A DNA stretch of 64,000 nucleotides from Psammoneis japonica (taxonomy: Eukaryota): positions 1 through 64,000 of the forward strand of contig QPGO01000153.1 in the NCBI GenBank assembly GCA_008632985.1, read 5' to 3'. This document shows, one piece after another, positions 9,840 through 64,000 of this stretch; position 1 is the stretch's first letter, and the number at the start of each line of letters is the position of its first letter. The notes below the pieces were generated by a model. It was not told the origin of the DNA. It worked only from the letters and a program-made list of their open reading frames with translations, and searched no databases. Made by a program: the position numbers and the translations under genes.

Positions 9840-12800
9840 TCAGCTACTGCTTGCTACTCTCTTACGCTTTCTTCGTCCCGAAGTGGCTTGTTCGTCCTTC
9901 TCATCGGCCCCGCTGCTCTTGCCTCTCCTTTTCCTTGTCTTTTTAGTTTCTTTAGCTCCACCATCTTTAGGAGTGTTGCCTGACAAATTGATTCGAATTC
10001 GAGTTTTCTTCCTTCTCGTTGACGGCGCTTCTGTGGCGTTCTCTTCATCGACGGCGGTGCCGGTGTCGTCCGGCGAAGCTGCTACATCTCCGTCAACTGA
10101 AGCGGGCTTTTTACGCCACCTCCTCTTCCGAATAGGAACTTCTTTCATGTTGGTGCATTTTTTGAGCAAGCAAGCCTTCTTGCGGATGCGTTTCGCTCCG
10201 GTGACGGTCTGATCTAAACATGCGACGCATTCGCCGCAGGGATCTCGCGTACACGCTTGACACTCCTTGCAGGGTACCAGCTTCGTCCTCACATCTTCGG
10301 TTCCCATGCCGTCTTCATTCGCGTCTTCACCTTCACCCGGTTTCTCGTCACTCTTCTTCCTCCTGCGGCGCCTCTTCTTTCCTTTACCTTCGCCGTCCTC
10401 GTCGTCGCCTTCTGCATCCGAGTAAACCTCGAGCACCGAACCATCTTCAGCAAGGAATAGATTGTGTTTCATGGCTGCGTCTTTCAACACCGCTGGTCGC
10501 ATAAGTGCTTGTCGCCTCGCTTCCTTGACAATATCAGAATCAGCCGCATTGAATTGGAGACAGTTTGTCATAACCAATACAAAGTCTTTCTGCATAGCCT
10601 GGGCGGAACGGTACTCCCCATTGGACAACTTCGCTTTCATCGTACCATAGTCCATTGGTTGCTTGATTTGTTCATAATACTCAGGGAACTCGTCTCGCGG
10701 AACAGGAACAGAAAACACTCCGCCTTTAGCGGTGTCGACTTTGATCATTTCGTCAATAACCGTCTCCAACACCTTGGATACCACACTGCGGGGAAAAGAC
10801 GGCCAGGGCCGACCAGCAGCCGTCGCTGCATCCTTATCCGACGCCCACGCTCTACGGCGCCTCGCCTCCTTCTTGCTAATACCTTGGCGCTTTCCTCCAC
10901 GGGATGCATAGATGTCCTCCCCAATATCCGACCAGTCGGCTTCCGAGTCTGAGTGGTGGAGATAGCCATCCTCTCCGAGGTATCCTCCGCTTTCCTTTTC
11001 GTCGACTCGTGATTTCTTTGCAGGTCTCTCGGATTTGTCCTCCTCGAGTCTGTCCCTACGCTGTCGTTTCCTTCGCTGACGGTCACTCAGGATCAGCAGC
11101 TCTTCAGGCACGTCCGCACTATTTGCTTCTGGACTGGCTACACTTGCGCTCGAAGGCTGCTCAACCACACGACATCTCCTTCGACGATCACCTTCCAGAC
11201 GCTTAAGCATGACTTTAGCTGTGTGCCGTTGTTCCTCGTTGAATAGTCCCTCTTTGACTGATATTGTCAAAAGTAGCTTCTGGCACGCCGATTTCTCAGC
11301 AGACGGCAACGAATCGTCCTCGGCTTCTTCGAAGATGCCATCCATCATACTCTTCAGGTCTGACATGAACTTGTGTACCTTCCTTACGTTTGTACGAGAA
11401 AGCGCCTTGTGTTCGTTTCCGCGTGGCTTTTCGTTCTCGACCTCCTCTTGCTTGTCTTCATCCTTCGCTTCTCCTTCGACTTCCTTATTCGCGTCGACCG
11501 CGCGCCCTTCGTCCTCTGCCGCAGGAGCTTCGTCTGGCTGGTCACCTTTTTCATTTAAAGCAGCTTCTCTCTTCTCGCGTGCTTCCTTTTCGGCTCGCTG
11601 TTGCCTCCATCGTCCTCTTCCGGGCCCTTTCTTTTTCCCAGAGCCCCCTTCAACTTGCTCCGAAAGCTCATCCAATTTTGTAAGCATAATTGAAGGAGTG
11701 ACAAAGTCTGGCATAACCTTTTGCCAAAACAAAGGATCGTCCACGTCTACGTCGGCCGCAGCACCATCGCTGTCACCGGCGAAACGACTTTTGCTCACTA
11801 CCATTCCCTGCTTATTCAGCCAAGAAGCGGTTTTTGCACCTTCGACCACGCGAGTGCGGGTTCTCTTGGCAAGGATGCTATCAATGTCATCGGCACAGAA
11901 CTCTCGCCCAGTTTCGTCGTTTTCGTCTTCGAGGAGCGCGTAGGCGCCCTTCTTGAGAAGTTGCTCCATTTCTTTCGACGTAGGTTTGTCGTCATCATTG
12001 TCTTGACCGAACGTTCCGAGCACGGCCTGCTCTAACCCAAGCTTCTTGCTTGCACGGTCAAACATTTCCTGCTCGAAAGTTCGGCTAGTGATGAGTCTGT
12101 AAATCCTCACATCCTTTGTTTGACCAATACGATGACAGCGAGCTTGAGCCTGAACATCATTTTGGGGGTTCCAGTCACTATCGAAAATTATGCAGATGTC
12201 GGCAGCGGTCAAGTTAATACCAACGCCACCAGCACGGGTAGAGAGTAAGAAGATAAAGCTGTCGTCTTGTGTTTCGAAACGGTCGATCGCCTTCTGACGC
12301 TCAGTGCCACGAACTCGACCATCGAGACGCTCGTAATTGAAGTGCCGAAAGTCGCAATACTCAGACATCAAGTCCAGCATCCTCACCATCTGGCTGAAAA
12401 TTAGAACCTTGTGTCCTTCTTGGCGAAGTTTAGGAAGCAGTTTGTCCAACAAGACCATCTTACCACTGCTTTGAATGTAGCCATGCTCGTTCAACATGAG
12501 CTGTTGGCCCTCGGGAGTTACGCCCTCTAGCTTGCCACTCTCCATCAATTCTCGGAACTGCTTATCGGCTTCCCTTTGCTCCACACCCTCTAACAAGCTG
12601 TGTTACAAGCAGAGCAACGAGAAAGATAAATGAGCGTATTAAGAACAACAGAGAAACATCAGGAGATGCAAAGAAAGTGGGTATGAAGAACTCACAAAGG
12701 ATGGTTGCAACACTTTCTCAGTTCCATCTGGATGTTCATTAGCTTTGGAGCGTTCGATCGAGTAGCACCCATACTGAGAAAAGAATGGTTGTGCTCAAAA

Positions 12801-15800
12801 ATAGCTCGATAATACTGTTTCTGGATACTCGTCAATTCAACGTCAATCACAGTTTCCTCCTTCGCAGGAATGTCTTTGGCGACATCCTCCTTGACACGTC
12901 TCAGCATGTATGGTGATATCTTGCGTTGCAACGCCTCCACCTGATCACGATTTGCCATGTTTCCGAAGTTGGCCTGAAACTCTTCCAGACTTGGAAACTT
13001 GAACGGTTCAATGAAATTGAGAAGAGTCCACAATTCTTGAGTGTTGTTCTGCAGAGGAGTGCCGGTCATTAGAATCCTGCTCTGAAACCCGTACTGTAGT
13101 GTACCCCGAGCGCTGATTTCCTTCATGCATTCGAGAAGCTTTCCTTTCACGTTGCGCAGTCGATGGGCCTCGTCTACTACAGCGACTCTCCACGGAATCT
13201 GGCCAATAATGTCGAAATCGCCAATAAGAGTATCATAGGTGGTGATCAACGCATCAAACTTCAAAAAGTCCGGAGTGTGAGGACGATCGGCATAATACCA
13301 CTCATACTCGCGCATCACATCTCGCCAAATCCGTTGCCTATCATGATACACGCAGCACACCATATCCGTCCATCCCTGAAACTCACGACGCCAGTGCTCC
13401 ACAGTAGACAGCGGAACAACTACCAAATACGGCCGTTGAATCTTCTCAACACGAGACAGATGCTCGATATACGAAACGATTTGTACTGCGTATAGAAAGA
13501 AGCAAGGCAGATAAGACTAAAGAACAGAAAACGAGCACCAAAAGCACACACGGCAATTCTTGTCTTACCGGTCTTGCCTAGGCCCATTTCGTCCGCAAGG
13601 ATGCAACTGTGACGCTTGTACCAGGTGCTTGCCAACCAATTCACCCCATCGATTTGGTAGTCGCGCAGTTTGTTCCCGTTCTTGTAAATATGAGGATCAT
13701 CGTGATCATAGAGCTTGTCGCGGAATTCTAGGTAAGCATCCTTGCCCTTCTTACTGCTTCCGCTTTTATCGCCAGACTTGGCCGTAACCTCTGCTCCAGC
13801 GAGAGCGTAGCGCCATCGATAGCCACCCACCTCATCACCTAGTTCCTCGTCGTAGTCGCCCTTGAGCATTTGTTTGATTTCGTTCAACGATATCTGAAGA
13901 GTCGCGGCGGCATCTTCGGCGCTCGCCCAGATTCTGATGGTTTTGTTCGACGTGGTTTCAATCTGCTCAACCTTCACTGTAGATCGATTGGCCGTCTTCT
14001 CGGTTGTTTCTTCCTCTGACTTGCCGCCTGATCGTGTCGCCATTCTACCGTCCTCGTTGGAGCTCTCAGCAGCAACCTCTTCCTGAGATTCACTTCCGTC
14101 TAGCTTGTTCGACTGAGTTTCATTTGGGAACGGAAACTTTTCAAATTCAGCAGCATCCGGCTCAACAGACGTTAACGTGACAGCAGCGCACACCTTTCCA
14201 CTTTCGCCTAGAGTTGAAAAGTCATTCTTTTTCACTGGAGCCGTTCGTTCTTCTTCGTCGTCATCTTGTGCATTGCCTTTTGGCTTGGCCGTTTTCTTAT
14301 CGCCCACACATGCTTGCTGTGCTTCCTTTAGTGTCGAAAAGGTGCTGTCTACACCATCAAGGAAATACGCACAGTCTTCGTCGCCTCCTTCATCACTACT
14401 GTATCCAATATCCTCATTGAGAAGTCGGTAAGCCAGAGAATGTGCCGTCTCTGGTCTTATCAGCTCGGGAGCTTCTGCAGCAATGCCGTTGCTCATTCCC
14501 TCGGCCGTAACAGCAGCCTTTTCATTTTGGCTCCCTCGTCAGAAGGCGACACGGCCGGGGAAGGTCCCTTTCCGTTCATTGCCTGTGCCTCAGCATTGGA
14601 AGGAGGACTAGGCGCCGCTGGAGACGGCTGTTTCTTGGACCGAACGAGCTCTTCGTCGTCGCTGTCGGGTTCAAATTCACCCTCGCTGCCCTCGTCCTCG
14701 GAATCGTCGTCGTCCGAGGTGTTTCGTTCTCCGACACTGCCGTCGCTTTCTTCTGCTTCCTTCTCAAACTCTTCCTCCACTTGCTGGTGTCGCCGTTGCA
14801 ACACCAATCGTTGCCGATCGCAAGCAAACTTCTTTTGCAACACCTCGGTTGCGTAGCGACCCGTCATTCCAATGCTGGTGAGTTCATTGTTACAAACTTG
14901 GTACCTGCGTTCGAGAAGGCGCATAAAAGCATACTGGTTCTTGCCACTTTCCCGTAGCATATGGATAACGTCCTTGAACGACTTGTTGATGGTACTCACT
15001 CCATCGACAGCAACAATCTTGTCTCCGTTATTACGAATGAGATTGGCAATCTCGGCGGGACCCCGAGATCCGTCTGCGAATTGACGGTACCCAAGAAACG
15101 CCATCGAACCATGAATGTCTCCGACATTCATCATGAGGCCCTTGGAGGTGACTGGGATGACGGCATCATACTCTCCCGTCAAGAGCGGAGGCATACCAGC
15201 ACTCAGATCCATCAAGGCCTGCGAGGGACTGCGAGACAACCGATACGTCATGTCGGTAACGCACTCGACAACTTCAGGTGGGTGCTCGATAGAACTCTGC
15301 GTTGACGAGAAAGAGTCTTCTCGTGCCCTCATTTTGGGACCACACTCCACGCCGAGACGTTCCGGCACATCCAGCCCAAATTTGGTAAACTGAAAAGCTC
15401 GCGTCTGCGCGTAGAGCTGAGAACGAAGTTCGGGAATGCAAGAGATACCACCGGCGTTTTCCACATTGACGTGCTGCACCTTTTCCAAGACCTCATTGAC
15501 TTCTGCTTCCGTCACGTCGGGTTCGTCAGGACTCGTGTTGTTGAGCTGATAGTATTCTTCAATCAAGGCATCGTCATCGATATCCTCCTTGGTTTCCCAG
15601 GTGCAAAACTCATATCCCAGTCCCGCCCACTTGACGAGAAACATGTTTTGCTTGATCGTCCTTTTGGGTACATCCCCCAACTCTGCCCTCTTGCGCGCGG
15701 CTTGCTCCGAGACAGCGGAAAGCATACGGACACCCTTGACGGTCGACAGCTTTGGCTTGCAATCGGGACAATGCCAAATACCCTTGGGAAGCTTGGTGAG

Positions 15801-17651
15801 CCCGACACACTGCATTCCATAATTGGCATCACAGTGATCACACAGGACCATCTTGTCATCGGACGCCCCACACTCGCCATCACAATGACGACACGTGTGC
15901 TCCCACGGTCGGGCCTTGGGGTTGATCCAACGGAGGTAGCGCTCGCGATATTCCAACACCCATGCGTGGTAGAGGCGTTCAAACTGCTTGGACATGTAGT
16001 CAGCCACATACCAAATGGCAGAGCCGTGCTGGTTGTAAATCTTGCAATTGTTCCAGACCTATCGTATGAGAAATGATTGAAAGTTAGAGAGTGCTACACA
16101 TCGTGCAAGAGACAACAGCAACTTTCAGACTAACAAATACTTACCTTTCGGACATCCCGTGCAAAGTTCTCGGGAGCCTGATATTTCCGCTCCTTCAGTT
16201 TGGTAGCAATCGTTCCCAAATCCATGGGCTGCTCAACAATCTCTTCATAATCGGAAAATTCATCCACGTCCACAGGCTCCAAAAAGATATTGGCAAACCC
16301 ATCCTTGGAAATACGGTCCAACACCATTTTACATCGCCGCAGCGGCTGCCACATTTCACTCGGCCTTTGGGCCCGTTCCATCATTTGCCGTTCCCGTTCA
16401 AACTGTTCCGTCTCTTCCCGTTGCAATTGAATGTAGGGTGCCTGTTCTTCCTCCGACATGGTGCGCCACGCGTCACCAATCATGGTCATGATTTCCGACG
16501 GAGCCGCGTCCGGATGCTTGCGTTGAATCTTGGGACGAGACACGGCTTGAAACAAGAGATAGGACGAACGTGGCTTTTTCGGTGGGGTCGTAATGTATCC
16601 GTCTCGATAGGGATTGTCGCACCCTTCAAAGGACGGATAGAACGGACCATCCTTGTTGATGATTTTGCGAAGCTTGTCAATCGTCAATTGACTGATATCT
16701 TGATCTTCTTCCTCATCATCTTGCTTTTCTTCTGCAAAGAAAGCAAAAGAGTGACAGAGCATAAGGTGAGAAACAACAATAAGCATAAGGCGGATAACAG
16801 GAGAAGAGGGCCCCAGAAACGGGAAAAGACGGCTTACCTGACTTTTCCTCGGACTTGTCGCTCGGTTCTTCCGTCGCTGCGGCAGCAGTGACACCAGATG
16901 CGTCCTTGGGAGACTCGCTGTCCTTGTCCTTCTTTTCTTCTTCTTCGTCTTCTGAAGAATCCGAGTCCTGTTCCAATTTCTGTTTCTTTTCCCACTCCAC
17001 CAATTCCTTATCGGTCAATTCGACCGTAATTTCTTGTTCAGCATCGTCGACAATCTTTTGAGGCTCGGCGAAGGATGGATCAAAATTGGGATCTTCAATA
17101 TCCTCTTCTTGTCCCGAAGCAATCTTTTTGAGAAAGCGTCTGTACAGCGTTTTAGCCGACTTGTTCATGGATTCCAGATCCGCACCAGTCTTCCATTCCA
17201 AATGAAGATAGGAACGGCCCTTGTACTTGACGAGATACTCGTACTCCAGTACCGGACCGCCGCCGTCGTCGTTGGCTTCGTCTTCCCCATCGAGATTGGA
17301 TTTCTGATCTTCCATAGGCCGCCGTCCTACAATCAAATCGATTTTGGGAGAACCGTCTAATTCGTATTCTGGCATGAACGTAAAGCGTTCTCGAAGTGGC
17401 GGTAAGGATGGATCATAGCCTTTTTCTGTATGGACCGGTGCGTAATTATTGTCTTCACTTGTGTCCATGGAATCCTGTCGTCGCACGGTGGAACGCTGCT
17501 GTTTACGAGAGGATGAACGTGGTGGCTGTGGCTGCTGTAGCACTTCATCCTTTTCAGCCTCGTCTTCAAATAAGTCATCGTCACTAAATTCTTGTTCCTT
17601 GGCATAATCTACAACCTTGGCCGTCTTGCGACGTGCACGGCCGCTTGACAT
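9840..17651 (-). CDS. CHD-type SNF2 chromatin remodeller with chromo-like, HMG-box, bromo, PHD, chromo, PDZ-like, SNF2 ATPase, HELICc, second bromo and CXXC-type Zn-finger domains
   Basis: Exons 17651-16838, 16731-16145, 16058-13569, 13485-12696, 12597-9840 with GT-AG introns. Motifs [56 protein letters not shown]. One missing A in an A-run at ~14525 breaks exon 3. Confidence 0.9.
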
Positions 17652-44026: not shown

Positions 44027-45555
44027 TCACGCAAGACCCAAGTCTTTTAAGCGGCCTTGATTCCGCTTGATCTTTCCAGCCTTAACTTTTCATATTCACT
44101 GAGGTCGTAATTCGGTGGGGGGTCGTAGTTTGGTGAGGGCGGTCGGTGATTGTCCTTTCTCTTTCTTCTTTTCGGTTTCGTTTCTTTTGGCTTGGACGAT
44201 GCCAGTATTCCCGATTGGCGCCTCTTGAGCCTTTCCTTTCGCTCCAGATGCTGTTTTTGTCGCTTTTCCTCTTCCTCAGCTGCATCGTTATACGCCATGT
44301 ATTCTTGACCGTCCTCCTCATCCGACCCCTCGTCGTTGTCCGAAACGTCATCCTCACTACTGCCTTCTTCATGATTGTCATCCGAATCCAGCATTGCGCT
44401 GTCCCAACTAACTTCATCGTCATCCATGATATCGTCCTCGTCACCATCCCCCTTGCCACTAGAGGACCTCTTCCTCCTCCAACTGTTTCCTTCCCGTTTC
44501 CTATGCTTTATACCCGTCAAACCCTTGTTCCAGGGTGTGAAACCAACATTCCAGGGTACCGGTTTTCGCGTTTTCTTTTGCTTTACCAGCAAATCTTTTT
44601 GGTGAGTGTCAATGACGCCAAGAATGGATGTACAACCTGATCGGTTCAGGGTTCGTTCGCCATTCTTAACAATCTTTCCAGACTCCCATTCCCTCTTAAT
44701 ATCCTTGAACCTCGCATGGGTCTTTTCAATCACTTTGGCATGGGCAATTACCCTCAAATTCTTGTCTCGGAATTTGCCACCCCTTTCGTGAATTTTGGCA
44801 ATGGTTTCTTCCACAACAATGAGCTGGCGTTCCTTGGTCGGTACAGCTGCTTTGTCCCCAAAATATTGATCTGCGTAGGTATCCAACAAGGCCCGCCACT
44901 TGGCATTTCCAGGATAGAGATGGTTCCGTCCTCCATGAGCAAAGACGACATCGTTTTCGTCATGACCAGCCCCGACTGCCACCCTCACTTTGGGTCTCTC
45001 GATTTGTCGCATCCGACTCTTGGTTTTATCAATGGCGGCGTCCAAGGACAGTTTGCCCTTGTTGTTTTTGGAGCAAAACACTCCCCCCTTGTCCAACACT
45101 ACCTGTACAACTTCGGCAGCCAGAGTGCGTCGACGATAATCTCCCTGTGGGAGTTTTTGCCATTCGGGAAAGCGGTCTTCGCAGACTTTATAAAAGAATA
45201 AATTGCCAGGATGCGAGATGGTTTGAGCCGCACCACCTCGGACGTTGTGGACGTCGTACAAGGAGTTTCTCTCAGGTTTCTTCTCGTGATGGTTGGCTTT
45301 TTCCTCAATGGAGTTAACCACCTCTGGGATTGCTGTTTTTTCACCTGCGGCTGTCGTCTTGCTGAGACTTTGTAGGGGCATAGCAGCAGCATCTGTAGAA
45401 GATGCAACCACCTTACATTCAAGCATGGCGCTGTCTTCTGGATTATTCTTCACTTTAGTACTAGTAGAGGTATCAGCGTTGCAGCGTGGGACGACTTCTT
45501 CCTTATTAACTTGCTTAACCATCTCATTGCTGGAAGATTTAGTGGCATCTGCCAT
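44027..45555 (-). CDS. Protein with two DUF6824-like domains and an acidic/basic tail
   Basis: YDVHNVRGG...HPGNLFF...VVQVVLDKGGVF and ENDVVFAHGGRNHLYPGNAKWR...IHERGGKF. Restoring one A at ~44070 gives the C-terminus EYEKLRLEKIKRNQGRLKDLGLA* (stop at 44027-44029). Confidence 0.75.
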
Positions 45556-45755
45556 TGTCGTTTCTCTCTGACCGTTCTTCGGTTATGTATAAGCTGAAGT
45601 AGTGCTGCAGATGCACTACTACAAAGTAACATGCCAGTGGTACTGTACTGTACCAGTGAAAAGGGAAAAGGAATGTAGGGCTATGGGCTTTTGGTTTTGG
45701 CGACGGGTTAATGATGGTTATATGATGATTCTTCGCTGAAATTGAAATAAGCTGA

Positions 45756-49186: not shown

Positions 49187-49679
49187 GAGCTCAGACTTGC
49201 AGGCTGGCACTTTGTTCAATTTTTTGCTGTCTAACTTGGGTTCCAGCACATGGCTGCCAATGACTCAATTGTTGTCCTCTGTGTGACCCACCTCCCCAAG
49301 ACACCGGTGGAGTGGTCATCAATGTGCAGATGGCAGATCATTCTCAGGTTGTGAGCTGTGCTTTGCTGCAGGCAAGTGGGCCCCCTCCACCACACAATGA
49401 AATGACCAAACAGTCATTGCATGACCTTGTTGATTCCAGCAGACAATGTTTTGAACAAGAGTGCTGTCACTCTGTCAAGGATGAGTGGGGTCAATGATGC
49501 AGCTGCATTCACTGCTCTTCTTGATGTCATTGATCAATGTGTTGTGTGTGGGAGTGGCACACCCTCCACTTGCGCATGACCTGCATGAGTTGCACCATCT
49601 GAAAAGTCAAACTGCATTTTTCAGAGCACAATGAACACATCCACAATGACCCCCATGAATGGCACCCACTCTAAAGCAA

Positions 49680-51189
49680 CATTGTTGTGGGAGAGGTGTT
49701 TAACTTCACCATCCTCCCAATCCACGTCGCAGCATTGCCGGATGGGAACATTTTTGCGCACGGCGCATCTGCGGAGGGAGAAAAATTTTGGAGAGATGCT
49801 CATTGTGAAGTCTGGCACACCGACTCTGGTGATCATGGCTTTGGAGAGAACCATGTCAGGTGCACATGTGAGGGAAATGTCAATGTCTTTTGCGCGACGC
49901 TGTCAATGGATGTGGCAACTGGAAACATTTTGATCCTGGGTGGCTTGGCAAGTGATGCACAGATGGCTGGCGAAGCAACAAAACCAATCGAGCCGCCTGG
50001 TCACAATGACGTTTTAGAGTTTGATGTTGGAACTCACAAGATTCGCAGGGACAGAAGGAAACATGACGCATGGATGACACTGCGCGACGAGCATCAACCT
50101 TCCAGATGAGGCACATTCATTGCAGGGGGCACGTCACACCAGAATTTGAAAATCACTGAAGTTGCAACAATTCATGAAATCTGGAATCCTGAACATGGCT
50201 TTCAAGCTTTGCCAGGAGCAGAAATGCTTGCCATGAGCAAAACGGAGGCCGAAACAGAGAACTCAGAGGATGCTTGGTGGCATCCTCACGTGCATGTCAA
50301 TTCGAAAGCAGACATTCTTGTCATGATTGCGGATGAATGTGACAACGAGATTTGTCGTGTGGGAGTGCATGGCAATGGATCGATTGAAATGGTGGGAACC
50401 AGACCTTTCAAGGGCCACAAGCTGGCTCCTTCCATCATGTACGATGTGGATCAAGTCGCAGTGATGGATGCTGAAGATGGAATGATGTGGTCGTGGAATG
50501 TTGCCAATGCCTCCAACTCGACCTTTGTAGCAAAAGCTCCTCTGTCAAAGCCACGTTTTAACGCTGCCATGACAATGCTGCCGGATGGTCAAGTCATGAT
50601 CAATGGTGGTTCGGGACTTTGGAGTGGCAAAGACATGGGTGCCAACAATCATGCCTTAAATCGCAGTGTGAAACATGCTGAAATGTGGGATCCTGTTACA
50701 AACACCATGATTGAGGGGGCAGAGCAAGATGTGCCACGCCTTTGTCACTCTTCTGGACTCATTGTGCCTGATGGATCGGTTTTTTCAGCAGGTGGAGGAG
50801 CACCGGGAGTTCTTGCCTCACCAAATGGCCAGGTCTGCTGTCCCGGCTGCTTGTTTGATGCACAGTCAGGAAATCCGGTGACCCATCCAACGATTGAGGC
50901 CTGTCCCAGCAATCTCACTTCTGGCATGACTTTTTCAATTGCTGCCAGTGGTGATCCATTGGATGTTCAAAAGGCAACAGCCACCAAGCCTGGCTCCATG
51001 ACGCATGCTCGTAACGGCGACGCTCGGTGGCTCGATCTTGCCCATGCAACAATTGGAACGGAGATGACTGTTTCCTTGCCAGATCAGAATGTGGCAGCAC
51101 CTGGTGTGTGGCATCTCAATGTCATTGACAACCAAGGAGTGCCATCCCATGCCCGTCTCATCATTTTGCGCAAGCCAGAACAAAATTAA
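49680..51189 (+). pseudogene. Galactose/glyoxal-oxidase-like (AA5 copper radical oxidase, kelch + C-terminal DUF1929/E-set) pseudogene
   Basis: PIHVAALPDG, NVFCA, MTHG*HCATSINLPD, LPDGQVMINGG, AEMWDP, VPRLCHSSGLIVPDGSVFSAGGG, GSMTH, PGVWHLNVIDNQGVPS. Internal stop at 50075, frameshifts, and both copper-ligand Tyr positions changed to Cys. Confidence 0.8.
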
Positions 51190-54100: not shown

Positions 54101-54412
54101 AGGAGCGCGCCTGCCACGCCAGTTTGGATTTACTTAAGGGTTGGGACCCATAGCAGCACACTCGAATTGGAAAAAATGATCGAGTGAGTCAATTTTTTTG
54201 AAATTTTGCATCGTGCACGCTCGCGTTGCACTTTCAATTTTTTGGACATGAAACGCCATCACTATTTGCATCGCGTCGGCCTCTTATTTTAGTAGTAGAC
54301 AGATCTAAGCCTACCTGCTGGATCTACTGGGTCGATCATCTCAGAGCGAGAGACTTGGGTTGCTGCTCACTGCACTCTGGTTGTCCTTGCTCTCTCCATA
54401 TATTATATTACC

Positions 54413-56190
54413 ATGTTTGATGAACTCCCCTGCAACGTGCAACACTCGGAGCAGCTCGAGCAATTGCCGTCCGAGTGCAAGAGCGGGAATCCTGAACGAC
54501 CGCTTCGCCATGTCGACGACCGAGGGAATGTTTATCACTATGCACTTCGTCCTTTGCAATACTCGGTGCTATTGATTTTGGTAGTGGAGCTCCTGGAGAG
54601 ATTTGCATTTTATGGTATCTATTACACACAAACACTCTATTTGACGGGAGTTTACAATAATGATTGGAATGCCGGTTTCACGTCGGTCGATGCCGCATCC
54701 TTTGTTTCCATTTCAACAGCTGTAGCCTACACAACGCCCTTTATGGAGCCATCTTGGCCGATACCGTACTTGGAGACTACAAGGCCATTGTTGTGGGTGC
54801 CTCACTCTTGTACTTGCCGGGACTCGCCTTGGTGGCACTCACAACCGTGCCTGGGTTGTTGGGTGAAACGTTCAACACGACGGCACTGGCCATTTCCATT
54901 TTGTTTCTGTGGCCCATGGGGACGGGTATTGTCAAGTCAGTGGTCAATGTTTTGGAGCCAAGCAGTTTCATCCACTCTTGCAGTCGGCGTCCATCGAGTC
55001 GTATTATGTGAATTTCTACACCAGCATCAACATTGGTGCCTTGGCAGGAATCACCATTCTCCCCACTCTTGCTCAAGAGCATGTCACAGTGGCATACACC
55101 ATTCCAGTGATACTGTTGGGTCTTGGTGTAGCGCTCTTTGTGATTGGTACACCGCGATATGTGATTGGACAGCCGCGAGGAGATTTGTTTTCCAAACACG
55201 CAAGACCCGCCATTCCGCTCACCACCATTTTTCGCATTTCGCTCTTGATTGTTCCCTTTTGCATTGCGTACTCGCAAATGCCAACCACCTTTATTGTTCA
55301 GGGCACCGTCATGAACAAGGCATTTGGGTTCATTGATGCGCAACCATGAATAGTCTCGATGCCATTTCGGTGTTGGTGTTTGGATATGTCACTGGATCGC
55401 ACCTGTATCCGCTCTCAACAAGCGCGGCATGAAATCCCAACCACGTACAAATTCGCATTGGATCCTTTTTGGGAGCGCTCTCCATTTTGTGGGCCTTGCA
55501 TGTCGAGTCTATGATTCATAGAGCCTACAGCAACACGGCACTCAAATCAGTGTTTTGTGGCAATCGCCGCAGTACATTCTCATTGGCTGTGGAGAAATCT
55601 TTGCCGTTTCGGCCGCCTACGAGGCTGCCTTTACGGCATCGTCACCGGAAACCGAAGGTGCTTGCCAGTGCCATTAATATTTTTTGTGTGGTGGCATTCC
55701 CAATGTGCTTTGTATCTTTTTGTATCAAGCCTGCAAGGGATGGTTTCGGAATAGCCGCGGTGACACCAACATTCAACACATTGACGACTACAGCACGGCT
55801 CATGTCTACAAGTACTTTTGGGTGCTTGTGGCCATTCTCGTGTTTGGAATTCTACTCAATACGCTATCCTTTGTCCGGGATTTTGTTAATTCGGTAGAGA
55901 AAAAAGCAGCCGACCTTGTCAAGACTCCGGTCCTTCGCAAGCCGGACGAGGAGACGCCCTTGTTGCAAAAGCGATTTGGCAGTGGACCCGTCTTGCTCAA
56001 AATGGGTTCCATGCGTGCGGGACCGTCGCTCAGTCACAAGCAATCCAAGGAGTTGCACATTAGTCGCAAGGATTTACCCAAGCTCTACCGAGCGGGAGAA
56101 AAGCGTGGAAAGCCCTGTTATAAACTCAACCGTGAAGAAGAACATGTCGGGCCAGAAGTGTTTAGTTTGAATCGTCGCGACACACAATAG
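54413..56190 (+). CDS. POT/PTR (NPF) family proton-coupled peptide/nitrate transporter, with several single-base frameshifts
   Basis: ELLERFAFYG motif, GAILADTVLGDYKAI, GTGIVKSVVNVFGAKQF, FYTSINIGAL, YSQMPTTFIVQG, distributed over consecutive frames. Probably intact with assembly indels, or a recent pseudogene. Confidence 0.8.
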
Positions 56191-59924: not shown

Positions 59925-62116
59925 TTACCGGTAACATACAGTACAACAATCACATTCAATTTCCCCATCGGTACTCTCGTCGATGCCACAATCACCAGCT
60001 ATGTAATGAAGAGTATTGATTTCGCAAATGTCCTCGGGCACCTCTCCCTTGAAATGGTTATTGAAGAAATGAAACTCAACTGTGGAAAATTGCAAATTGC
60101 GTGAAAATCTTAAGAGGCGAAGATTGTTCTAAATCGCGGCATCGAAATGTAGAGCTTACCTAATTTCTTAAGTTTGCCGAGGGATTTAGGAATGGTTCCA
60201 ACCAGCTCATTTTGATTCAAACGCAGAATTTCTATTAAAACACGATGGGCAGGCACAAACAGTTTTAGGTGAAAGCTCGTCATCACAGCTGAACTGCAAA
60301 TCACAAACACGAATCGTTCGTTCATAACATTCATTTGAAGACCAAGAACTCACTAAGCGTTGTCACACGAGATAACTCCGGGTCGATCTCCCCGGTAAAC
60401 TTGTTGTCATCAATCCAAAAATCAGCTGTTGTGCGTCAAACATCGGAGGAGGTCAGACATGAACACGGTTCAACACGTACAACTTCATGGGAGGGCAAGA
60501 CTTACTCAAATGCTTAAAGGATGATACGTCTGGCATTGGTCCAGTGAAGCGATTTGCAGTGATCTTGAAAGAATCTGAAAAAGAACAGGTACAATTTCAA
60601 AACACATCGAACGTGAGACCAAGCAGGAGGGACAGGACGACAAAGTATTCCTTTCGGCTTGTCACAACTTACGCAATGAATTCAAAAGGCTTAACTCTGT
60701 AGGGATCTTTCCTGAGAGAAGATTGTTATCGATATGGAGGTCACGCAAATCCGTACATCCACCAATTTCAGATGGGATATTGCCTGTTAGCTTGTTCTCC
60801 TGCAGGTGTAAAAGGGCTGGTTGCGCAACAAAGAAAGGTGCAGTATTCATGATGAGATACCGAAACGCGAAAGGGAGCCTGCTTCTCTCTAAGAAAGCAC
60901 AAATGAAACTCACCTAATACATGGAGCTTTCCGAGAGTGGTTGGAATCGTTCCCTTCAGGTTCTTGTTGCCTCCAATGGCTAATGTCTTGAGTTTTGCCA
61001 TAATCGAGAGTTCCGGAGGTAGCTCGCCATTCAGGTTGTTCGCGGTTAAGTTAAGATGAATAACATGAGGAGTGATTCCTACAGCAGCAGACATCTTTCC
61101 GAGTGCACCCGTCGAAGGCACATGGTTTCCACATTTCACTCCGTACCATGAACAAATATGACTCGATGTCAGCCAGCCATCGTTTTTCTTCCATTCCTGT
61201 TGAACCTTCGTAGTGGAAAAGAAGAGTGTGACCATTGCATAGCGTTGAAGCATGTCAAAATGGCCAACCGAAAGCTGTGCTTCATCCTCATCCGATAGCC
61301 ACCTTGCCGCTCGGCTTTGCGGTGAGTTCTGGGTTTTTAAGTCCTTCTCCACTGATACCTCCGAGTCGACCAGATAATCAAGGATGCTATGAAAACGTTC
61401 CTCATCCACGGGGAACTCAACCTCAACTTTCCCGCCTTCCTCTTTAGGGGGCGCTTTGGGAACGACTTCGCCAGAATCTTCGCCTTCAGGTACGGTATAT
61501 CCGTGATTGTCTTCGCCACTAACAACTACTACAGTACCAACAATCGCAATTGCCAGCACAACCATGACAAGACAAGTAAGCATCCTTTTAGGAGAGCAAC
61601 TTCCAGAAAAGGAGGAGACATGCTCTGCTAGAAAGAAGGATGTACTTGGACTGCGATCTTTTCTTTTGCTGATCTGTTTCTTGAGATGGTTGTCTCCTTT
61701 TCAATACCAAATTCGCCGTGCATGAAAGATCGAGATGAGTCGCCTGCATCAGCTCGAAACCTCGACGTACGATTGATCTCGTGCTTTGCTGTTTCGTCTA
61801 GTAGCGAGGACTTGTGAATCCCGTTCACCTGCATTGGTGCTCTACTTGTTTTCATCCACAAATCACCTTCGTCTTCGTCCGATAAGAAGCGACGCACATT
61901 CTATAGAGGAAAATCATACCATTAGATGCACATTCCGTGACCAGTATGAAAATTGTGTGACAGTGGTCTACTTACCTCCAACGTTCCTTGCTCGAGATGG
62001 CCGTTTTTTCCTGGCGGATCAGACCCCCCGTACTTGCTACCAGAAGACGGATTCAAGCTACCGCTACGACCAAAACGTGGTTCTGGGCTGTCAAAATTAA
62101 TTACACCACTGGCCAT
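59925..62116 (-). CDS. Type-II membrane LRR protein (paralog 5), multi-exon; at least one frameshift in exon 2
   Basis: Intron 1 at 61901-61975 followed by NVRRFLSDE. TM helix. Cap QRYAMVTLFFST...CSWYGVKC. LRR exons. C-terminal DC...CDCCTVCYR. Confidence 0.8.
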
Positions 62117-62788
62117 GGTCTTTTTCTTTGACGTCAAGAGAAGAACAATTCATCAAGCGGCAAACAAACAAGCTACAGTACAACTGAATCAGCATGCATG
62201 TTGTCGTTTTCTTCTTTCCGGCGACTTGATTTCGTGACGGTGCGCAAGGGCATAATTAATCTACAGAATGACCTTTGTACAAAATGACCCATGAATGACT
62301 TTTGACTTGTGACATACCGTCCGTACGAGGTACAGACACTCGCTTCGATCCGCAATCGAATCTTCCAATCTCTCACATCTTCAATCTCACAAAAAATCTT
62401 CTTGATTGATGGATGCAATGGCAGATGGCGGATGCGGCAGAACAACTTCGAACTTAGTCTTCGTTATGAACGTCGCACAACGTTCCAAACTGTTGTTTTC
62501 TGTCCACCATAGACGCAGAGAAGTCCATGCAAGTTTCTCACGTTGCCAAGGCAACAATCCATGCCTTTTCTGCCGACGAGTTCCTTCGAAATCTAACGAA
62601 TTCCAAATGGCTGCATACCCGTTTATTTTTACCGATGAGAGTTCTGTCGTAATCTTATGAACTCCATGGTATTATAACGATAGAAATCCTTAGAAGTCCA
62701 AGTTGTGTCGAGTTTCGGATCCTTGGGGCACTCAAAATAGCTCACAAAATAAAAAAAACGAGCAAAGCAAAACAAAATCAACCCCACC

Positions 62789-63968
62789 ATGCCTCTTACT
62801 CTCACCATTAGTGAAGATGCGCCTCTTCCTCACGACAGTATCGAAGAAGCCGTCAAGCTCCTCTCGGAATCTTTTTTGAAGCATCACGGCCTAACCAGCA
62901 ACACCGTCATGACTCCCAATGTGACTGCCAATGTGGTGATTTCAGATTGTACCAAGGGGCCTATCCTTTTCAGGTGGCAACAAGTTTGCCGGAGTCTGGA
63001 TCGAATGGAAAGTCCCTTCTTTTGCGTTTGCGACACGTGAGATTCAAAAAGGATACGGACAAGATGCTGTCGAGATTATTCAAAAGCTTACCAAGGGGAA
63101 ACAGCCGAAGGATAACATCTACTTCAATGTTGTCCATACCGTCAATGGCGCTTGGAACTTGGACGGTAAGGCCATGACCAATGAAGAGCTTGCTGCATCC
63201 ATTGCTACTGGCGCTCCTGACAAGAATGAAGAAACCGGCAAGCATTTTCTTCTCATTCATGGAGCCTGGGGTGGGGCTCGGGAATTCGATGAAACCATTC
63301 AAGGACTAGAGCGCCGTGGGCATCAAGCCACCGCCATTGACCTTCCTGGACACGGGGACTTTAAGGCACTTATTTCTCAAGTAACTATGGAAGCTTACGT
63401 CAAACGGGTTGTTGAGGCAGCCAATGCTGTTGAGGGAGGATCATTTTAGTTGGTCATTCGCTGGGGGTTCCATCATTTCGCAAGTCGCAGAGAAGATGCC
63501 TGAAAAGATTGAGCGCCTTGTCTATGCTGCAGCGATTCTCCCAAAGAACGGTGAGACTGCCTTGGGACTGATGCAATCTGATCCCGATGGCCAGTTGCTT
63601 CCCCGCCTTGTCTTTTCAGAGGATGATCCTTCGTCACCGTTTCTCCCAAGGTGGTACAAGAAGTTCTTCTTCACGACGTAAAGGAGCCTGAAAGGCTCGC
63701 GCAGTTCTTGCCCCACTTTGGTGTGAAACAGGCTACAGAGCCGTTTACGTTTGTCGCCGACTTGAGCAATGAAGTGTTTGGCTCTGTACCCAAAACATAC
63801 CTTCGTGCATCAATCGACAAGGTTCTTTCTCCCGCACTCCAGAAGCAAATGATTTCGTCGTGGGACGTGGATCAAGTCTTGACGTTGGAGTCTGGTCACT
63901 TTCCATTAATGTCCATCCCGGAGAACTTGGTGGATGCTCTTGACCAAGCCTCCAAGTTTGACGAATAA
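62789..63968 (+). CDS. Fusion of a tautomerase-superfamily (Pro1) domain and a methylesterase-like alpha/beta hydrolase; intronless, several frameshifts
   Basis: N-terminal MPLTLT...HGLTSNTVMTPNVTA...FSGG...WKVPSFAFA...NIYFNVVHTVNGAWNLDGKAMTNEEL continues in one frame (62943-63440) into FLLIHGAWGG...AIDLPGHG. GHSLG, D-KVL and SGHFP follow in later frames. Confidence 0.7.
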
Positions 63969-64000
63969 CCACATCCCTGTCACCCGTTTCTCGTTGTATA

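Follow-up and report, generated by a model that had tools for sequence, protein, structure and literature searches.

Whether a eukaryote can carry as one protein two enzymes that bacteria encode as separate neighbouring genes is the question raised by the last 1.2 kb of a 64,000-nucleotide stretch of the diatom Psammoneis japonica (assembly GCA_008632985.1, contig QPGO01000153.1, positions 1 to 64,000 of the forward strand; this whole stretch is called the window below). At 62789..63968 (+) lies a gene whose product would begin with a domain of the tautomerase superfamily (TSF) and end with an alpha/beta hydrolase. An earlier note on this DNA, made from the letters alone, had proposed that two neighbouring bacterial genes were transferred and fused in frame. 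Our analysis indicates that this is probably a genuine gene of the eukaryote that came from bacteria and specifies a predicted two-domain enzyme. The in-frame fusion is supported by an open frame across the junction and by two intact fused homologues, and the transfer of a neighbouring pair by the adjacency of the two genes in bacteria, by concordant trees of the two halves and by the lack of a fused form in the bacterial loci searched.

Reading frame and correction from read contigs

The gene starts with ATG-CCT (Met-Pro) at 62789 and stops with TAA at 63966-63968. As printed it is divided over five frame pieces; once corrected from reads it has 391 codons plus the TAA. An in-frame TAA 13 codons upstream of the start (62750..62752, +) fixes Met-Pro as the N-terminus of the exon, and therefore no N-terminal extension of the fusion protein is possible within this exon. 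In the printed window the coding sense shifts from frame 2 to frame 0 at ∼62939, from 0 to 2 at ∼63437, from 2 to 1 at ∼63462 and from 1 to 0 at ∼63625. Because these pieces abut or overlap, there is no room for introns in the gene. Frame 0 meets stops at 62937 and 63447 and none in between; it is open over 62940-63446, across the domain junction, and the peptides WKVPSFAFA, VVHTVNGAWNLDGKAMTNEEL, APDKNEETGK and FLLIHGAWGG are all read in it. The Met-Pro start, the unbroken passage from the tautomerase-like domain via APDKNEETGK into FLLIHGAWGG and the absence of introns thus stand as the earlier note had described them, and the indels for which it had wanted a correction with reads were found as three dropped bases and a 7-base insert.

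These were located with contigs of two DNA runs of one sample, X1 and X2, which a public-run search had matched with 88% and 65% of sampled words. The contigs were aligned to 62300-64000, with two allelic branches, each at about half depth. Logan contigs pop bubbles, and reads cannot be counted from them; moreover, the two runs are possibly the source of the assembly itself, and they serve as an independent consensus, not as independent proof of linkage. At three frame breaks both allelic branches carry one extra base, and their depths add up to the total. The missing bases are a C at 63436..63437 (+) and a T or G, depending on the allele, at 63461..63462 (+) in the region of the GHSLGG motif (X1 depth 32.9 + 24.3 of 57.2 at both sites), and a G, T or C by read allele at 63624..63626 (+; 29.5 + 25.6 of 55.1). 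Run X2 gives the same both-branch pattern at all three sites. Since both branches carry the extra bases, the three breaks represent bases that the window consensus has lost where the sample is heterozygous.

The remaining break is a 7-base frameshifting insert at 62939..62945 (+), which is present in the window and in the X1 contig (0 of 56.2 depth without it) and absent from the X2 contig (20.6 of 20.6 lacking the seven bases after 62938). From 62300 to 63428 the X1 contig is identical to the window. Upon removal of the insert the frame is restored and reads ..NVVIVPRGLSFSGG.., as in both fused homologues described below; at residue 162, the X2 contig and both these homologues have Trp, and the window has Arg. 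Most likely, the insert marks one haplotype of a heterozygous site, of which the other haplotype is intact. With the four corrections applied, the open reading frame (ORF) extends over 391 codons and is open in every allelic branch of the 3′ half. Outside the C-terminal tail of the hydrolase, which is gapped in the bacterial rows, the corrected protein retains all residues that are conserved at ≥95% in bacteria (80 TSF rows; at least 25 of 26 hydrolase rows), bar four changes in the TSF half: G10D, T92V and one inserted Pro, which are common to the three fusions, plus S99T.

Divergence between the alleles is uneven, with 17 variant positions and three indel sites in 63399-63968, and merely one single nucleotide polymorphism (SNP) and the 7-base indel across the ∼1,100 bases of 62300-63398. 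Every base missing from the window falls in a heterozygous bubble.

Domain junction and fused homologues

The two domains are joined by the linker APDKNEET (residues 140-147, 63213..63236, +), which lies between the end of the 138-aa-type protein and the start of the hydrolase. Over 62946-63428 the contigs of both runs match the window but for one SNP at 63279. A HMMER scan with the 161-aa in-frame piece against 1.84 billion representatives gave 586 matches, and all of the 150 listed cover one half only: among them, matches to the N-terminal half end by query residue 86, and those to the hydrolase begin at query residue 74 or later, mostly at their own residue 2-4. When the search was limited to longer proteins, exactly two were found to span both halves: P0151, with 389 aa, and P0152, with 414 aa. 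Over the 161-aa query they show 78% and 70% identity, respectively, and their records come from JGI, ENA and Logan. Aligned with the corrected window protein, they show gaps at one linker residue and one loop residue only, and a G-(A/S)-P-D linker is conserved across the three fusions. P0152 has 23 additional residues ahead of MPLTL, ending ..KKQNIQT, which are similar to the A-rich window leader in translation, ..KQNKINPT, and which would be explained by an over-extended gene call.

A full-length AlphaFold2 model of P0151 has a mean predicted local distance difference test score (pLDDT) of 92.0, with both domains well folded, a linker (residues 139-144) below 50 and a predicted template modelling score (pTM) of 0.66. 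The model indicates a flexible connection between the two domains and predicts no interface.

The N-terminal tautomerase-fold domain

Residues 1-139 (62789..63212, +), with their Met-Pro start, are assigned to a TSF-fold domain from the fold, the conserved Pro and the family residues that are kept. Neither Pfam nor NCBIfam matched this domain, in the window pieces or in eight full-length relatives. In particular, the Pfam tautomerase models (PF01361, PF14552 and PF14832) gave no hit at E ≤ 1 with the eight family members and the window pieces, hence none above the gathering threshold, and a family profile against PDB sequences gave chance-level matches only (E ≥ 0.59). Matches to the N-terminal half in the HMMER scan are stand-alone proteins of ∼138 aa that end where the domain ends, and a word-indexed search with one family member gave, at E ≤ 0.001, 1,682 cluster representatives, almost all of them 138 aa long. 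A few of these relatives carry the NCBI name '4-oxalocrotonate tautomerase'.

An AlphaFold2 model of the family member P0001 (pLDDT 92.4, pTM 0.86) contains two beta-alpha-beta units, a hairpin and a helix, and had 244 Foldseek matches in the PDB at E ≤ 0.001. At the top were Cg10062/cis-CaaD, Pt0534, Ps01740, fused 4-OT and MIF (E 3e-8, template modelling scores 0.70-0.75, 11-18% identity). With its two predicted beta-alpha-beta units and a Pro after the Met, the domain belongs to the tautomerase superfamily at fold level; Met-Pro is kept in 78-79 of the 80 bacterial rows and in all three fusions. In a Verrucomicrobiales metagenome-assembled genome (MAG; locus L064), a second Met-Pro protein of 145 aa is encoded directly downstream of the 138-aa gene (L064:4515-4949, +). 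This paralogue just passes PF01361 (22.7 versus 22 bits), and hhalign aligns it with the 138-aa family over 134 columns at a probability of 95% (E 3.9e-8). By profile similarity it bridges the 138-aa family to recognised tautomerases, if indirectly; a second indirect link is PF01361 on 14% of one look-alike Atlas cluster. The tautomerase-like character claimed by the earlier note is thus upheld by the fold, the conserved Pro1 and this profile link, with Pfam itself giving no match.

The residues of the family are distinct from those of its structural relatives. In window numbering, His33, Asn38, Glu70, Lys72, Pro74, Phe76, Asn111, Val112, His114, Gly118, Trp120 and Ala126 are invariant, and the window domain keeps His33, Asn38, Glu70, Lys72, Pro74, His114, Gly118 and Trp120. 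Asp117 was rejected as a further invariant residue: it is found in 26 of 26 rows of a smaller alignment, and the wider set of 80 has D in 74, N in 5 and E in 1, and therefore the Asn117 of the window is no clear sign of damage. According to the part of a TSF survey cited here (PMC5818174), the catalytic set of cis-CaaD is Pro1, His28, Arg70, Arg73, Tyr103 and Glu114; cis-CaaD uses Arg70/Arg73 and 4-OT uses Arg11/Arg39. In contrast, no Arg occurs among the columns conserved at ≥95% in the 80 bacterial rows, positions 70-74 read E-W-K-V-P, and the 138-aa family has invariant His33, Glu70, Lys72 and His114 instead. On this comparison of conserved columns, which shows just the absence of a conserved Arg pair, the family does not belong to the cis-CaaD subgroup. 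The lack of conserved Arg suggests that the Pro1 site may bind no carboxylate in the manner of 4-OT or cis-CaaD.

Identity to Ps01740/Linker 1 (5UIF), Pt0534/Linker 2 (5UNQ), fused 4-OT (6BLM, 6VVR), Cg10062 (3N4G) and cis-CaaD (2FLZ) is only 8-18%. These relatives are two-unit ('fused') members on the path from 4-OT to cis-CaaD and, unlike them, the window domain is joined to an unrelated catalytic domain. In the same part of the survey, nearly all TSF members have one or two beta-alpha-beta units and no other domain, eukaryotic members of the cis-CaaD subgroup are limited to fungi, and Pro1 must be a free N-terminus in the characterised enzymes (PMC5818174).

The C-terminal hydrolase domain

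Residues 148-391 (244 residues; 63237..63965, +) match Pfam PF12697 and related models; the PF12697 score of P0027 is 74.6 bits, and precomputed matches exist for P0151 and P0152. In the corrected protein, the nucleophile elbow GHSLGG with Ser222 lies at 63452-63468 (+), and the other triad residues are Asp342 (63816-63818, +) and His369 (63897-63899, +). The His-Ser of the elbow, the Asp and the His are invariant in 23 aligned hydrolase sequences, and the C-terminal half is thus an alpha/beta hydrolase of the Ser-Asp-His type. When a close bacterial homologue was compared with PDB sequences, pyrethroid hydrolase (5y57) matched at full length with an E-value of 5.7e-23, followed by SABP2, hydroxynitrile lyases (HNL), polyneuridine-aldehyde esterase (PNAE) and methylketone synthase (MKS1); the match to SABP2 (1.6e-17) covers the first ∼105 residues only (2-105 of the query). 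Judged by sequence, the earlier label 'SABP2/methylesterase type' appears to be a fair description of the class. Like the members of this group, the domain is an alpha/beta hydrolase of ∼250 residues with a G-H-S-x-G elbow and with Asp and His in the expected order. The bacterial homologues, again like the group, have no N-terminal extension, and the window hydrolase sits behind a TSF domain. In their sources the bacterial homologues are called 'pimeloyl-ACP methyl ester carboxylesterase' by automatic annotation only; the best NCBIfam scores on hydrolase homologues were far under every cut-off.

The two genes as a bacterial pair

An N-domain scan over one genome per prokaryotic species gave 199 candidate stretches, of which 190 were confirmed. 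The 80 loci kept, found with the closer alignment set and hence biased to P0001-like sequences, come from Pseudomonadota, Bacteroidota, Nitrospirota, Planctomycetota, Verrucomicrobiota, Acidobacteriota and others. With the window hydrolase half as query, a hydrolase homologue was found in 27 of them. In 22 loci the two genes share a strand and are no more than 400 bp apart, 13 in the order TSF then hydrolase and 9 in the reverse, and the count of 22 is a lower bound, as contig ends truncate many loci. In four further loci the hydrolase is 650-3,400 bp off, and one more has a distant homologue on the opposite strand. The adjacency that the earlier note had wanted checked is therefore borne out. 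Cultured strains with such a locus include Geothrix fermentans DSM 14018 and isolates of Flagellimonas or Flavivirga.

Pfam was run on 127 of 141 neighbouring ORFs, from 25 of the 27 loci. TetR_N occurs next to the pair in 10 of the 25, Crp-type cNMP_binding and DJ-1_PfpI in 9 each, EamA in 4 and sigma-54 activators in 3, with an old-yellow-enzyme reductase, a zinc-type dehydrogenase, a glyoxalase and YjgF as scattered neighbours. From these family names, the neighbourhood looks like a small regulated cassette handling reactive small molecules, of which DJ-1/PfpI may be a third member. The DJ-1/PfpI loci are L025, L034, L047, L053, L057, L060, L061, L062 and L070, at times with two such genes in tandem.

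None of the 80 loci holds a fused form, and neither does any of 401 sampled Planctomycetota genomes, of which 11 have a match and 4 have both halves. In these four, the halves always match separately, and a stop or a change of frame intervenes. In one of them (G069, locus L087, ∼1113-2260), the 138-aa gene ends with its stop and, after ∼13 nt, the hydrolase ATG follows in the +1 frame; a single small indel would turn this arrangement into a fusion. In L080, the IATGAP of the window linker region recurs at the end of the first gene (..IATGAPVAEIN). A spacer of ∼13 nt together with the IATGAP match means that the 8-residue linker fits read-through of a short spacer.

Origin of the two halves

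The loci closest to the window protein are identical for both halves: L080 (Planctomycetota; 68% identity in the TSF half and 69% in the hydrolase half), L064 (Verrucomicrobiota; 68% and 63%), L065 (Planctomycetota; 69% and 59%) and L066 (Planctomycetota; 65% and 64%). The three fusions are a clade (96/93) of the 30-row hydrolase tree, within a Planctomycetota/Verrucomicrobiota group, and likewise a clade (100/98) of the 83-row N-domain tree, there within an 11-row set (100/92), the other members of which are four Planctomycetota, three Verrucomicrobiota and one Myxococcota. Among the best 120 matches per half, every source name that gives an organism is bacterial, and absence from other eukaryotes was judged solely via these names. 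The gene is thus nested in bacterial sequences, with host depth and composition (see below), as found for a horizontally acquired bacterial gene in a eukaryote. One earlier claim fails here: both halves had been called proteobacterial, and the nearest named bacteria are Planctomycetota and Verrucomicrobiota MAGs. The donor of the pair would have been Planctomycetota/Verrucomicrobiota-like, with the order TSF then hydrolase.

Sampling of the hydrolase tree was made denser by adding 37 closer database hydrolases and P0027 to 13 kept loci. In the denser tree the fusions group (100/99) with P0275 and P0276, unfused proteins of 275 aa that have 25-28 unrelated residues ahead of ..(T/S)(G/S)KNILLIHG. 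These are the nearest relatives of the fusion hydrolase half, with 77% and 72% identity to P0151, and stand on Logan contigs of 948 and 1,765 bases. They may be unfused descendants of the same transfer or close bacterial kin, and may show either the state before fusion or a state in which the domain was lost.

Host context

Other ORFs of the window carry SNF2/Helicase_C with bromodomain and CXXC, chromo with PHD, DUF6824 and LRR domains, and the window is eukaryotic because its neighbouring ORFs carry such domains. Helicase_C, bromodomain and CXXC lie at 9840-12602 (-), chromo and PHD at 14493-16058 (-), and DUF6824 at 44047-45582 (-). The GC content at third codon positions (GC3) of the fusion gene is 0.51, that of nine other window ORFs is 0.45-0.61, and read-contig depth at the gene equals that of its flanks (56.2 and 58.8). 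GC3 within the host range and depth equal to the flanks together make contamination unlikely.

Two further genes of the window are interrupted. A POT/PTR2-type transporter at 54299-56190 (+; PF00854, E 1.4e-16 on 54867-55346) is spread over several overlapping frames, which may reflect dropped bases like those in the fusion gene, or short introns. A galactose-oxidase-like gene at 49675-51189 (+; GO-like_E_set, E 3.6e-13) consists of two abutting stop-to-stop ORFs, 49675-50109 and 50110-51189, with an in-frame stop codon between them; the split may come from an erroneous base or a short intron, or the two ORFs may be separate.

Alternative explanations

Several observations weigh against a functional eukaryotic fusion gene of bacterial origin. 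The X1 contig holds solely the insert-bearing version at full depth (56), and heterozygosity at the insert would follow from contigs, not from read counts. The insert-bearing haplotype has Arg162 where both fused homologues have Trp, and Asn117 stands in both contigs where Asp is found in 74 of 80 bacterial rows (Asn in 5, Glu in 1). A public-run search on 61800-64000 matched no RNA run. The N-terminal domain is recognised by neither Pfam nor NCBIfam nor the PDB sequence profile, and the structure model points to no fixed domain arrangement. In the trees, L080 (Planctomycetota) was rejected as the specific sister of the fusions, a position it has in the 30-row tree (96/94), as it becomes part of a polytomy under denser sampling, in which the closest partners of the fusions are the unfused P0275 and P0276. 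Finally, that P0151 and P0152 are eukaryotic, and that the fusion came after the transfer, is something we infer.

Of the alternatives, the one that survives best, though we consider it unlikely, is a decaying relic, i.e. a transferred fusion gene that was inactivated by the 7-base insert and is gathering damaging substitutions. The insert in both the window and the full-depth X1 contig fits this explanation, as do Arg162 and Asn117, and amino-acid changes are about as many as silent ones among the allelic differences of the 3′ half (10 of 18 listed). However, the X2 contig lacks the insert and has Trp162, the remaining allelic branches all keep the frame, 5 of 80 bacterial rows likewise have Asn at 117, and the highly conserved bacterial residues are kept apart from the four TSF changes, three of them common to all fusions.

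It is less probable still that the fusion arose in a bacterium and moved ready-made, or that P0151 and P0152 are themselves bacterial. Their records give no source organism, a metagenome scan for the contig of P0151 gave just two distant loci at 26% identity, and bacterial spacers down to ∼13 nt would make fusion easy. Nevertheless, a fused form is absent from the 80 bacterial loci, the 401 Planctomycetota genomes and the best 150 of 586 matches, the two longer proteins alone matched both halves, and the upstream extension of P0152 resembles the A-rich 5′ leader of the window.

Bacterial contamination or a chimeric contig end, which would make the gene foreign to the eukaryotic genome, is very improbable. 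It would explain why an intron-free gene whose named relatives are all bacterial sits within 1.2 kb of the window end, and with runs that are possibly the source of the assembly, contig depth and continuity do not independently exclude mis-joining. Against this, read-contig depth equals that of the flanks with two alleles at about half depth each, a contig of 7,970 bases leads into the gene from its upstream side and one of 12,066 bases runs past 64000, GC3 is like that of the neighbours, and the 650 bp upstream contain no bacterial ORFs. Two separate genes, with a junction error hiding a stop or start, can be dismissed almost entirely: a fifth error is conceivable beside four indel-type errors or variants in 1.2 kb, but the contigs of both runs agree with the window over 62946-63428 save the SNP at 63279, and P0151 and P0152 are continuous over the junction with its conserved linker.

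Proposed mechanism and significance

For a eukaryotic fusion gene of bacterial origin, we propose that a donor pair in the order TSF then hydrolase entered the eukaryote, and that loss of the stop codon with a frame adjustment in a very short spacer would have fused the two. Bacteria use both gene orders, and all three fusions have TSF then hydrolase; this would be the only fusable order because it alone leaves Pro1 at a free N-terminus. A free N-terminal Pro1 also excludes an N-terminal targeting or transit peptide, and therefore the fusion protein should be cytosolic. TSF enzymes form trimers or hexamers, with active sites built where subunits meet; for the fusion, a trimeric TSF core bearing three hydrolase domains is expected.

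The fusion suggests that the two parts work together. In the chemistry that we envisage, the hydrolase would act first, on an ester or lactone, and release an enol or beta-keto acid; this product would then be tautomerised (ketonised) or decarboxylated by the Pro1 domain, and the coupled reaction could be part of handling reactive carbonyls or electrophiles. Within the hydrolase group, PNAE and methylketone synthase act in ester or thioester hydrolysis followed by decarboxylation. Such a two-step reaction, from hydrolase to Pro1-domain chemistry, is put forward tentatively, and we lean against it at present. A bolder version seems unlikely as a whole, namely that the 138-aa family is an unrecognised TSF subgroup with a Pro1/His33/Glu70/Lys72/His114 site and an obligate esterase partner, forming a two-step ester-to-keto or decarboxylating detoxification module.

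A literature search found nothing in print on the pair of tautomerase-fold protein and esterase or on its fusion. PDB entry 9MUA, '4OT-SnoaL' of P. atlanticus by its title, reportedly joins a tautomerase unit to a different domain, and on this title alone it is a precedent for TSF fusions to non-TSF domains. In the portion of a study on oomycetes cited here, horizontal transfer followed by domain fusion in stramenopiles combined bacterial-type genes into multifunctional proteins (PMC2705460). Our case likewise combines bacterial-type genes in a stramenopile-like genome. A fusion of a tautomerase-fold domain with an esterase via a transferred bacterial gene pair is thus a new combination of known kinds.

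The N-terminal half represents a large bacterial family, spread over many phyla and unrecognised by Pfam and NCBIfam. Side-by-side genes in both orders, recurrent DJ-1/PfpI and TetR/Crp regulators and a natural fusion tie this TSF family to a specific esterase family, and the pairing gives a concrete, testable lead on function in a superfamily that draws interest through its unusual Pro1 chemistry. To algal genomics the locus offers a clean, well-delimited example of an operon-like pair that outlived its transfer as a single gene; it also shows that the present assembly loses bases where alleles differ, through which gene callers will miss such genes. If the proposed coupling is true, the eukaryotic fusion would be a 'Rosetta stone' for TSF-esterase coupling, and the alga would have gained a bacterial defence against reactive enol esters, lactones and oxylipin-type electrophiles.

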